64,000 nt of DNA from Octopus vulgaris (Eukaryota), in assembly GCA_951406725.2 (NCBI GenBank), contig OX597818.1:130324001-130388000 (forward strand), written 5' to 3'. Position 1 is the stretch's first letter; every line of letters begins with the position of its first letter. Positions 32,279-64,000 of the stretch are shown here, piece after piece. The notes under the pieces are model-generated. The model saw only the letters and a list, made by a program, of their open reading frames with translations. It had not been told where the DNA came from and made no database searches. The position numbers and the translations under genes were made by a program.

Positions 32279-33080
32279 TGTAGCGTGGCAGTTTCAGCCA
32301 CTTTGTTATATGACTAAAGCGATATCTAATATCTTCACTGTGTGAACGGCAAAGCAGAAATAATCTCGTTTGAGCTTACAACCATCTTTGGCCAACTTGT
32401 TCTTTTTCTAAACACTAACTTGATTGGTTGACGTGTGACACGAGGGTCCCTGCGTAGTTCGCGCCACTGGTGGACATGTGACACGAGGGTCCCTGCGTAG
32501 TCCGCGCCACTGGTTGACACGTGACTCGAATTGTCTCGACTTATTTTTGCGCCAATCGCGAATCAACCAATCAAGACCTTCGGTTAAAATTCCATTTTCT
32601 GGAGTTCGGTGAGCCAACCAAATAGTATAAAAACCAGTTTTCACAGGCATTTTTGTCTTGAGTTCTAGTTCTTCTAAGAACTAACTTAGGCCACCTACTG
32701 CTCAACTTAGAGATATGCGATTGTTTCTGCTTGCTGCTCAACTTAGAGATAAGCGATTGTTTCTGCTACTGCTTGTGCTATACTGATACAAACAACATGA
32801 ACTGTAAACCGAGTTCCGTGGTTAATCCTATGGTCAGTACCTTTTATGCCTCACGAACACACAGACACAAAACCTGCTAACACTTACAAACTTCCAACAT
32901 CAGCATGATTGTAAAATATGTAAATAAATATTTATCTACCAACAGAAGACTTGTGTCAATTCACTTATGTCCTATTGTCGTTGTATGTATTTTATGGCTT
33001 GTAATGATTTCGTTAAGAGTAGAGCCGCATGCGACCGTATTCCCAGCACGATACGACCGCATGTGATCTTACTTCTTACA
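32279..33080 (+). mobile_element. Solo LTR (4-bp TSD, Gypsy-like)
   Basis: TGTA...TACA termini; TSD GTTT at 32275-32278 and 33081-33084; TATA-like gtataaaa near 32625; aataaa near 32922; internal ~37-bp tandem repeats; CpG-rich relative to flanks. Confidence 0.85.
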
Positions 33081-34945: not shown

Positions 34946-35757
34946 TGTAGCGTGGCAGTTTCAGCCATTTTGAAATATGGCTATAGCGATATCTAATATC
35001 TTCACTGTGTGAACGGCAAGGCAGAAATAATCTCGTTTGAGTTTACAACCATCTTTGGGCCAACTTGTTCTTGTTCTAAACACTAACTTGATTGGTTGAC
35101 AGGTGACACGAGTGGTTTCTGCGTGCTTCGCGTCACTGGTTGACATGTGACACGAGGGTCTCTACGTAGTCCGCGCCATTGGTTAACACGTGACGCGAAT
35201 TGTCTCGACTTATTTCGCGCCAAAATCGCGAATCAACCAATCAAGACCTTCGGTTAAAATTCCATTTTCTGAAGTTCGGTGAGCCAACCAAACAGTATAT
35301 AAAGCAGGGTTCACAGACACTTTGGTCTTCAGAGTTCTTCTAAGAACTAACTTAGGCCACCTGCTGCTCGACTTAGAGATATGCGATTGTCTCTGCTACT
35401 ACCTGTTGCTACGCTAATCTATACAAACACTGAAAGCCTCTCGAGTAGATTCCAGCACCTTGCCCTATGAACAGTAAACTGAATGCCATTGTTAATTCTA
35501 TGTTCAGTACCTTTGGGTATGCTTCACGCCACCCGAACACAAAATCATACTAACGCTTACCAGCTCCTGATATTGACACAATTGTAAAATATGTAAAATA
35601 AATAATATTTATCTCCCAACAGCAAGACTTGTCGCCAATTCACTTATGTTCTATTGTTACTGCATGTATTTATGACTCGTAATAATTCGTTAAGAGTAGA
35701 ACCGCGTGCGATCGTATTTCCTACACGATACGACCACACGTGATCCTATTTCTTATA
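34946..35757 (+). mobile_element. Solo LTR, same family as 32279-33080
   Basis: Colinear homology over the full length; starts TGTAGCGTGG, ends TATA (TACA mutated); own TSD ATTG at 34942-34945 and 35758-35761. Confidence 0.85.
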
Positions 35758-37193: not shown

Positions 37194-37394
37194 CAAATTA
37201 GTGTGACTTACAATACGTTGCTCACCCATGCTTTTTTAAATCGATGTCTACGCCAAACGCATATGATTAAATTTTGCATATGACTAAATAAATCCAAATT
37301 AGTGTGACTTACAATACGTTGCTCACCCATGCTTTTTTAAATCGATGTCTACGCCAAACGCATATGATTAAATTTTGCATATGACTAAATAAAT
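37194..37394. repeat. Exact 100-bp tandem duplication
   Basis: 37194-37293 equals 37295-37394 with a 1-bp spacer. Confidence 0.9.
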
Positions 37395-61589: not shown

Positions 61590-62243
61590 ATAAAACACCA
61601 GAAAGTGATAAATGCAGAATCTGTGGACAAAATGGTGAAACCTTATGCATATTACCAGCCAATATAAGCCATTAGTCTCAGAAGAATATAAGAGATGCCA
61701 TGACAATATAGTAAGGCTTGTCCATTGGACACTTTGCAACAAGTATGGACTTGACAGAGAAAAAAATTAGTATGTCCACAATCCCGAAGGCATCATCGAA
61801 AATGATAATGCAAAGATCCCGTGGGATTTTATGATTCAGTGCAACCAAGAGATAGAGAATAGGAAGCCAGACATAAATGCAAACTATGCTGGATCATAGA
61901 TATAGCATGCCCAGCTGACAACAAGGTATGCAATAAGGAAGAAAGAAAAGTCAATAGATATGACGGGTTAGCTTGGGAGTTAAAGCAATTGTGATCAATG
62001 AAAAAGCTGGTAGTGGTAACAATAATTGTCGGAGCCCTGGGAACAGCGAGTAAAAACCTTGAAAAGTACATGTAACAAACAGGGGCTGCAATAAGGATGG
62101 AGCACTTGCAGAAAATATCACTGCTTGGAACCGCTCAAATACTCTGGAAGGTGCTCGAAAAATAAGAGGTGTTACCCTAGTCCACTGGTAGTGAACAGCT
62201 GACACCATAGTACATCTCCAGCTGTGCAAAGACAATACTAATA

Positions 62244-62290
<47 letters not shown>
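61590..62290 (+). mobile_element. R4/Dong-clade (RLE) LINE 3' fragment with (TAA)n tail
   Basis: Hand translation: CRICGQNGET / HI...YKRCHD...HWTLC...WDFMIQ...NRKPDI (CCHC knuckle plus restriction-like endonuclease), then IIVGALG; stops and frameshifts present; (taa)n at about 62240-62290. Confidence 0.8.
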
Positions 62291-62293
<3 letters not shown>

Positions 62294-64000
62294 TGAGCAA
62301 TCAGTAGATAAACATAAATGATAAATAATATTAAATGTAATGATGGGAGAGGTAAAAAGAGTTTTTCTTTCATTTCTGTTTCTGTTGCTATACTTCTCAG
62401 TGACTTGATGTTGTATTTTTTCTTTATCTTTTTCTTGTCCTTTCATAGACTTGATGTCAGTGGTAGCATCCTTCATAGCCTCGTGTGCCTGCAATACAAT
62501 CACAACTTCCTCCACTTTACACTGCAACAACTCATGAGAGTCTATTAAAGGTAACAGCACAGCCTCTTCAAGCTCCAACAACATACCAGTGATCTTGCCA
62601 GCCTTATCTGGATACATATTATGAATCAGTGGAAAGAGAGTCTCACCAAACACTTGTTTCTGTTCTTGTGGGGCAATTGCTCCTATCATACTGGAGCTAA
62701 GCAGTTCTTGTCCTTCAGTAGTCTTGATGTCAGTGGTAGCATCTTTCATAGCCTCATGTGCCTGCAATACAATCACAACTTCCTCCACTTTACCCTGCAA
62801 CAACTCATGAGAGTCTATTAAAGGTAACAGCACAGCCTCTTCAAGCTCCAACAACATACCAGTGATCTTGCCAGCCTTATCTGGATACATATTATGAATC
62901 AATGGAAAGAGAGTCTCACCAAGCACTTGTTTCTGTTCTTGTGGGGCAATTGCTCCTATCATACTGGAGCCAAGCAGTTTTTGTCCTTTAATATTCTTGA
63001 TGTCAGTGGTAGCATCCGTCATAGCCTCGTGTGCCTGCAATACAATCACAACTTCCTCCACTTTTCCCTGCAACAACTCATGAGAGTCTATTAAAGGTAA
63101 CAGCTCAGCCTCTTCAAGCTCCAACAACATACCAGTGATCTTGCCAGCCTTATCTGGATACATATTATGAATCAATGGAAAGAGAGTCTCACCAAGCACT
63201 TGTTTCTGTTCTTGTGGGGCAATTGCTCCTATCATACTGGAGCTAAGCAGTTTTTGTCCTTTAATATTCTTGATGTCAGTGGTAGCATCCGTCATAGCCT
63301 CATGTGCCTGCAATACAATCACAACTTCCTCCAATTTTCCCTGCAACAACTCATGAGAGTCTATTAAAGGTAACAGCTCAGCCTCTTCAAGCTCCAACAA
63401 CATACCAGTGATCTTGCCAGCCTTATCTGGATACATATTATGAATCAATGGAAAGAGAGTCTCACCGAGCACTTGTTTCTGTTCTTGTGGGGCAATTGCT
63501 CCTATCATACTGGAGCTAAGCAGTTCTTGTCCTTCAGTAATCTTGATGTCAGTGGTAGCATCTTTCATAGCCTCATGTGCCTGCAATACAATCACAACTT
63601 CCTCCAATTTTCCCTGCAACAACTCATGAGAGTCTATTAAAGGTAATAGCTCAGCCTCTTCAAGCTCCAACAACATACCAGTGATCTTGCGAGCCTTATC
63701 TGGATACATATTATGAATCAATGGAAAGAGAGACTCACCAAGCACTTGTTTCTGTTCTTGTGGGGCAATTGCTCCTATCATACTGGAGCTAAGCAGTTCT
63801 TGTCCTTCAGTAGTCTTGATGTCAGTGGTAGCATCCTTCATAGCCTCATGTGCCTGCAATACAATCACAACTTCCTCCACTTTTCTCTGCAACAACTCAT
63901 GAGAGTCTATTAAAGGTAACAGCTCAGCCTCTTCAAGCTCCAACAACATACCAGTGATCTCACCAGCCTTATCTGGATACATATTATGAATCAATGGAAA
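62177..64000 (-). CDS. Tandem MLLE (PABC) domain repeat protein, partial; 5' end outside window, true 3' end uncertain
   Basis: Stop-free frame to the window edge. Repeated unit [77 protein letters not shown] matches the PABP C-terminal MLLE signature (QKQxLGExLFPLI...[10 protein letters not shown]...VLQAH). Five complete units plus one cut by the edge; no RRM visible. Below about 62390 the frame runs into non-repeat sequence, then (TTA)n and LINE sequence, and may not be truly coding. Confidence 0.9.
62441..64000 (-). repeat. 273-bp coding tandem array (units 62441-62713, 62714-62986, 62987-63259, 63260-63532, 63533-63805, 63806-edge)
   Basis: Constant 273-bp period, also shown by antisense 66-aa ORFs recurring at 62621, 62894, 63167, 63440, 63713; substitutions only, no indels. 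Confidence 0.97.

Follow-up and report, generated by a model that had tools for sequence, protein, structure and literature searches.

Tandem arrays of MLLE domains without RRMs in the genome of Octopus vulgaris: origin from a PABP gene and a tentative role as PAM2 competitor

In the sections of a 2022 paper used here, PABP, UBR5 and fungal Rrm4-type proteins are the only carriers named for the MLLE domain (PMC9249222). PABPC proteins combine four N-terminal RRMs with a single C-terminal MLLE (Pfam PF00658; PABPC1 structures 1g9l, 3kuj and 3pkn), UBR5/HYD is a HECT ligase with one MLLE, and Rrm4 of Ustilago maydis (PDB 7pze, 8s6n) carries three RRMs next to three MLLE domains that are old and divergent and have a tested hierarchy; according to the same sections of that paper, the pockets of MLLE1 and MLLE2 are altered, yet both domains are retained. 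A prediction made from the octopus DNA alone had taken MLLE to occur normally once per protein, a generalization with exceptions, as Rrm4 has three such domains (same sections of PMC9249222) and many of the homologues listed below have two or more.

The octopus locus studied here shares features with each of these systems. As in PABPC1, its units carry the KITGMLLE signature, and they show 53-60% identity to human PABPC MLLE in structural matches, but IDNS is replaced by LEEA, helix 4 contains a proline, and at least one pocket residue is changed in most units. Whereas PABPC has one C-terminal MLLE, the octopus frames hold 4-20, and they lack the four N-terminal RRMs, so that poly(A) binding is not expected. 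With Rrm4 they have in common several MLLEs, flexible linkers (predicted in octopus) and some altered pockets, but they differ in having no RRM, in the youth and near-identity of their units, of which there are up to 20, and in their separate animal origin. UBR5 resembles them in placing an MLLE outside an RNA-binding protein, whereas the octopus frame has neither HECT nor RING and its units descend from PABP. Arrays predicted in other invertebrates are also tandem duplications of the C-terminal module of PABP, several with similar boundaries, but they have separate origins, reach at most 7 units among the counted matches and are often fused to other domains (6 units after a RING/B-box-like region in Patiria LOC119735791, RING plus 3 in Montipora and Acropora, 7 units in Babylonia, 3 in Mytilus and 3 in Plakobranchus). 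We found no description of MLLE-only arrays, from octopus or from other invertebrates, in the literature searched, subscription papers and supplements lying outside that search.

Five arrays in one cluster

The window, a stretch of 64,000 nucleotides (C5:130324001-130388000), contains a minus-strand frame (positions 62177-64000) that is open over 607 aa and whose 5' part lies beyond the window edge. Tandem Repeats Finder detected at 62432-64000 a period of 273 with 5.7 copies, 96% matches and 0% indels, and PF00658 matched six stretches of the frame (406 bits, E 1.6e-124), while the Pfam search of this frame gave neither an RRM nor a HECT family. The uninterrupted array of at least six MLLE units without RRM or HECT in the original prediction is thus borne out, the unit most upstream being cut by the window edge. 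Extension beyond position 64000, which had been proposed for finding the N-terminus and the total number of units, added to this copy (A1) units 1-5 and a 53-codon N-terminus with a start Met, the frame continuing to 130389632 and reaching the full length given in Table 1 from stop to stop. It also revealed four further arrays. A degraded remnant of the PABP linker precedes this start Met.

The whole genome was then searched with a single unit and with PF00658. As shown in Table 1, 54 MLLE units are contained in five open frames within C5:130386432-130418785 (33 kb), and only 5 of the 59 genome matches lie elsewhere. The 54 PF00658 matches of the cluster score between 69 and 99 bits, with a curated cut-off of 27. 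The repeat unit measures 273 nt (91 aa), and its spacing of 91 aa is kept throughout the cluster except for one in-frame deletion of 33 nt; at the DNA level the 54 units comprise 47 different sequences. Among the matches elsewhere, the one on C3 belongs to what we take to be the genome's own UBR5-type exon. The intronless frame on C2 is possibly, judging from its repeats, a second and older multi-MLLE gene, and a further degenerate MLLE was found on C21 (Table 1).

Table 1. Coordinates of the MLLE arrays, of the units of the window copy and of other features
Feature	Position	Strand	Description
Array A1	C5:130386177-130389632	-	11 units, 1151 aa; 3' half inside the window
Array A2	C5:130393279-130398660	-	20 units, 1793 aa
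Array A3	C5:130402402-130405866	-	12 units, 1154 aa
Array A4	C5:130412086-130414185	-	7 units, 699 aa
Array A5	C5:130417730-130419010	-	4 units, 426 aa
A1 MLLE unit 6 of 11	window 63809-64000	-	truncated by the window boundary (64 of 91 aa present); K580E
A1 MLLE unit 7 (91 aa)	window 63536-63808	-	G579R immediately before the KITGMLLE signature
A1 MLLE units 8-11 (4 x 91 aa)	window 62444-63535	-	Phe-pocket residues 8/8 intact; Leu pocket I588L, A610V
Read-through tail of A1, 88 residues	window 62177-62443	-	former PABP 3' UTR; terminal unit and stop of A1 deleted
LINE-type frame	C5:130407807-130410605 (L013:3807-6605)	-	endonuclease and reverse transcriptase, 932 aa, stop-free; in a single spacer
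Full-length PABP	C23:9276758-9278689 (L018/L019)		single intronless frame
Full-length PABP	C10:102744832-102746817 (L022)		single intronless frame
MLLE-like frame	C2:78134238-78135266 (L025:5238-6266)	+	342 aa, intronless; one Pfam MLLE match, apparent further degenerate MLLE-like repeats, no RRM
Degenerate MLLE	C21:26138162-26138464 (L024)	-	in a probable exon
43-bp tandem repeats	window 32425-32529 and 35091-35222		related to each other, 2.6 kb apart
101-bp duplication	window 37194-37394		exact

Every array lies inside a cassette with about 4 kb of flank, and the copies of this cassette are 97-98% identical, so they are young. The LINE-type frame occurs in only one cassette spacer and is therefore likely a recent insertion. 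The copies are preserved to different degrees: nothing is broken between Met and stop in A4 and A5, the first ATG of A3 is replaced by GTG, with an alternative Met ten codons later, and A2 is damaged at both ends, by an apparent loss of 1 nt in a run of A near the start and by a premature stop at the end. A1 has lost its terminal unit and stop codon by deletion. Neither an RRM nor a RING exon was found by a search, including TBLASTN, across 130 kb that reached 35 kb upstream, and in the four copies scanned no convincing TATA box or poly(A) signal is common to all. The window's copy A1 is, with A2, one of the two damaged copies; A3, A4 and A5 are better candidates for function, even if a complete Phe pocket is left in only one unit of each.

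In the tail of A1 a run of leucines is encoded by an (AAT)n repeat at window positions 62234-62294. Its interpretation as a membrane anchor was rejected, the tail being a private read-through into a microsatellite. The database protein of A1 (P0122, 995 aa) departs from the frame after QHQVTE and ends otherwise than the open frame, so that a splice must have been predicted there. Elsewhere the window is rich in microsatellites, and none of the 18 frames of at least 150 aa in positions 1-60000 is another convincing long frame; the 43-bp repeats and the 101-bp duplication found there (Table 1) probably belong to mobile elements.

Origin from a host PABP gene and age of the arrays

In BLASTN and TBLASTN comparisons the cassette aligns to the PABP gene on C23, from around codon 380 through about 250 nt of its 3' UTR, with around 75% nucleotide identity, and the part of this gene that encodes the RRMs has no match in the cassette. 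The C23 PABP is an intronless gene for a protein of 630 aa (643-aa open frame) identical to one labelled O. sinensis. The repeated unit consists of the MLLE module, at approximately residues 537 to 622 of the parent, followed by a short junction that is new. The array's start Met corresponds to M484 of the parent. In a tree of 52 MLLE domains, based on only 77 columns, the 15 octopus array units sampled (8 of the 54 from this genome, 4 from O. sinensis and 3 from O. bimaculoides) formed one clade (support 100/97) that was sister to the C23 PABP (100/98). These comparisons show that the arrays stem from a host gene, the intronless PABP on C23, of which they represent the 3' third, with loss of the RRMs.

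The lineage-specific amplification of an MLLE without RRMs and derived from PABP is in this way established, but not its proposed origin as a retrocopy, which is not demonstrable through intron loss because the coding region of the parent is itself intronless. The first copy may accordingly have been made by either an RNA or a DNA route. Of the marks of a retrocopy, a 5' truncation and the 250 nt or so of 3' UTR are present in the alignment, and a poly(A) tail is not evident. Both full-length PABPs found in the genome are intronless (Table 1), that of C10 being strongly diverged and placed on a long branch of the tree, and the PF00658 search of the genome gave no intron-containing PABP.

The best protein matches of the arrays carry the label of one of three species: O. 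vulgaris, with identities of up to 100%, O. sinensis or O. bimaculoides. The O. sinensis protein LOC115212275 (P0003) has 5 units and starts at the same Met as the O. vulgaris array, and the O. bimaculoides protein LOC106868392 (P0005) has 3 units in the identical 91-aa register and with the same new junction, each unit sharing 57-73 identical positions out of 80-91 with the majority unit. Two unit types, LDKAELLPL and LDTSELLH, are present both in O. bimaculoides and in the genome studied. As the split between O. bimaculoides and O. vulgaris is dated at around 50 Mya in the portion of PMC9699675 used here, the presence of the array in the proteins of both O. sinensis and O. bimaculoides implies an age of about 50 My for the open tandem frame. 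Among the 150 matches listed from a HMMER search of 1.84 billion representative sequences, the only near relative is the octopus cluster.

With respect to expression, one O. sinensis record named "isoform X2" is a hint only, and the database label "polyadenylate-binding 4-like" overstates the octopus array proteins, which have no RRM. Of the 24 sequencing runs listed, 19 contain part of the stretch, with no RNA run among these. Contigs from four of these runs were considered as evidence of expression and discarded, since they span spacer and frame, reach 17-19.5 kb and are probably DNA. No run-derived protein like the octopus array appeared among the matches listed in three length ranges, a result that is uninformative because repeats break such contigs.

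Contact surface, selection and possible function

An AlphaFold2 model of A1 units 8-10, obtained with an 18-row alignment, contains three five-helix domains (mean pLDDT 77, pTM 0.38, linkers below 50), and Foldseek superposed the model on the complexes of PABPC1 MLLE with peptides (3pkn, 3kuj) with an rmsd of 1.3 Å. The units are thus predicted by modelling to adopt the five-helix MLLE fold. To examine the PAM2-binding surface, 18 contacts were taken from the part of PMC2854688 on eRF3 complexes. In the majority unit and the two internal O. bimaculoides units, 3 of these 18 contacts are changed versus 30 of 60 other positions (p=0.015), a test that weakens to p=0.06 when the O. bimaculoides units also comprise the terminal one, and to p=0.13 with the majority unit alone. 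With eight contact residues defined from portions of PMC7356810 and PMC11347130, 0 of 8 versus 36 of 67 positions are changed (p=0.005, and 0.005 also in a codon-aware simulation). A preliminary set of 14 residues gave p=0.0003-0.0007 and was set aside for the paper-defined set of 18, with its weaker result.

Within the cluster the pockets are less uniform (residues in human numbering). The original prediction that the peptide contacts are kept in most units is right for the window, where the Phe pocket is entire in 4 of 6 units; in the cluster it is not, since only 13 of 54 units (5 of 11 in A1) have the eight residues complete. Similarly, the motifs it named are seen in the window units, with K580E in one of the six and G579R in one. 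Over the 54 units the changes in the Phe pocket are G579R (12 units), K580E, G563S and E564K (9 units each) and Q560K (5 units), while the triad F567/K580/L585 is intact in 42. In the Leu pocket, I588L is found in 54/54 units and A610V in 36/54. Among the seven matches to PAM2 motifs in the genome, six exceed the Pfam cut-off, and two form a twin motif, which we take to be like that of eRF3. Single eRF3 sites bind with a Kd of 3-4 µM, according to the relevant portion of PMC2854688, and we infer that chained MLLE domains would matter through avidity.

The state of the frame differs on the two sides of the start Met. In the 101 codons of linker remnant upstream there are 4 disablements (at least 3 stops and one 2-nt frameshift), versus none in the 139 codons downstream in A1, A3 and A4, which show only two in-frame indels (Fisher p=0.03, with the Met boundary picked after the stops were seen). 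Neutral simulations gave a probability of 0.004-0.15 for the 139-codon stretch to stay open. No stop was found among the 97 distinct variants of the 43 internal units (P 0.009-0.025), a count that omits 11 first, last or shortened units, including the broken first and last units of A2. On the other hand, these variants comprise 22 synonymous and 75 non-synonymous changes, which fits neutrality (p 0.3-0.7), the mean pairwise omega among internal units is 0.7-1.05, and the omega of units versus parent, 0.31-0.51, fits a constrained parent and a near-neutral copy, both the omega values and the variant spectrum being obtained by counting methods. Polymorphism does not avoid PABP-invariant residues (36/61 vs 12/20, p=1). 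Neutral dN/dS, which had been named beforehand as evidence against a functional protein, is therefore what was found among the present units. The picture suggested by these comparisons is one of old constraint on the frame and on the binding surface, relaxed today across redundant units.

In functional terms the PAM2 scaffold or decoy of the original prediction is still the best interpretation. As main reading we propose, with a probability of roughly 0.45, that the octopus chains are an RNA-blind multivalent competitor for PAM2 under birth-and-death evolution. A 5'-truncated PABP copy, produced by retrocopying or DNA duplication, would have retained an internal Met, and its exact MLLE module would have been duplicated in frame before the split from O. 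bimaculoides. Unequal crossing-over would next have expanded the units and, recently, the whole cassette with its flanks of about 4 kb. Selection may have prevented the closing of the frame and, in the past, have preserved the PAM2 surface as well, and redundancy would now permit the decay of single units and copies. If expressed, the chain would draw PAM2-motif proteins off poly(A)-bound PABP, its intact units binding PAM2 peptides of the eRF3, ataxin-2, Paip or Tob types with micromolar affinity and high avidity, and the outcome would be that PABP-dependent termination, deadenylation or granule assembly is damped in a restricted tissue.

We regard as quite possible, although we would not favour it, that the locus is an amplifying pseudogene, in which a truncated PABP copy turned its 273-nt unit into a coding-derived satellite through unequal crossing-over and is no longer, or never was, functional; the frame would then owe its openness to a unit length divisible by three and to homogenisation in recent times. 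The neutral 22:75 spectrum, the omega of 0.7-1.05 and a polymorphism that is not depleted at conserved sites agree with such a pseudogene, and so do the Phe pocket altered in 41 of 54 units, the broken ends of 2 of the 5 copies, the lost first ATG of another and the youth of cassettes that are 97-98% identical. Difficult to reconcile with it are the open tandem frame in species about 50 My apart, the restriction of shared stops to the region upstream of the Met, the 0 stops in 97 variants, the contacts conserved across species, and unit boundaries that coincide with domain boundaries, as in separately evolved arrays. If it were merely this, the locus would be a clear case of a protein domain becoming tandem repeat DNA.

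The other explanations are weaker. Stress granules require the PABPC1 MLLE and the PAM2 of ataxin-2, according to the section of PMC11347130 used here, and the AlphaFold2 model has the appearance of beads on a string, which would suit a scaffold, a flexible chain of MLLEs from which RNA granules nucleate as it cross-links proteins that self-associate or have several PAM2 motifs (ataxin-2, GW182, LARP4). By analogy with the accessory MLLEs of Rrm4, of which MLLE1/2 are kept despite altered pockets (sections of PMC9249222 cited above), altered units could tune valency or specificity, and the unit types shared by O. bimaculoides and the genome studied are in line with this. Both ideas are nevertheless improbable, since there is neither RRM nor RING in the frame or within 130 kb and the variation between units appears neutral and not patterned. 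A host-parasite decoy, an array absorbing viral or retroelement proteins aimed at the MLLE of PABP, would explain fast turnover and flux in copy number; a complex of a coronavirus nucleoprotein with PABPC1 MLLE has been solved (title of PDB 7bn3), and invertebrate arrays recur, some fused to RING or RING/B-box-like regions, but an omega of about 1, and not above 1, makes this reading very improbable. Finally, tandem arrays are hard to assemble and the unit counts per copy come from the assembly alone, so inflation of a locus of one or a few units was considered; we give it hardly any credit, as 47 of 54 units are distinct in nucleotides, the assemblies of other species also give multi-unit proteins, and the flanks differ by 2-3%, one of them with a private LINE.

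A bolder version of the competitor reading, which we consider rather unlikely, is that of a dedicated RNA-blind "PAM2 sponge", variable in copy number and with up to 20 MLLEs. In some tissue this sponge would reset the control of poly(A) tails, of termination or of miRNA silencing, and it would be the most extreme member of an undescribed class of poly-MLLE proteins that animals have evolved repeatedly and that includes RING-fused versions able to ubiquitinate PAM2 factors. If a natural MLLE-only polymer were confirmed, it would represent a new layer of control on the PAM2 network, exerted by competition and avidity and not by RNA binding, in a group already noted for its expanded RNA-level regulation (in the portion of PMC9699675 used here). 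The K580E, G563S/E564K and G579R variants and the lengths of 4-20 units make valency and specificity directly testable.

MLLE arrays in other organisms

Two or more MLLE domains are present in 49 of the 120 near-length homologues listed (4 of them from octopus) and in 25 of the 28 longer ones (2 from the octopus cluster), all these relatives being predicted proteins, some of which may be annotation or assembly errors. The highest numbers outside octopus among the counted matches are those of Babylonia and Patiria. In the MLLE tree, which omitted Babylonia and the divergent four-MLLE family described below, the grouping of arrays by taxon reaches starred support for Corticium, corals, Patiria, Anneissia, Apostichopus, Haliotis and Mytilus but not for Plakobranchus and Bufo. 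At the level of the domain tree, the arrays of other invertebrates are shown to have arisen separately, and such separate origins in molluscs, echinoderms, corals and a sponge suggest a general route to new regulators.

Proteins P0011, P0012, P0019, P0024 and P0124 combine a RING with 2-3 MLLE domains in corals and a RING/B-box-like region with 6 in Patiria. No description of these RING-MLLE proteins of corals and starfish was found in the literature searched. Their domain composition makes them candidates for ligases that ubiquitinate PAM2 proteins, in convergence with UBR5. A divergent family of 310-390 aa (a subset of P0027-P0048 and P0101) consists of four MLLE-like domains only, forms clusters of up to 82 members and looks old and conserved. 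In Mytilus, P0128-P0133, P0137 and P0022 are PABP-like proteins with 2-3 MLLE domains, several of which also match Pfam PF02854.
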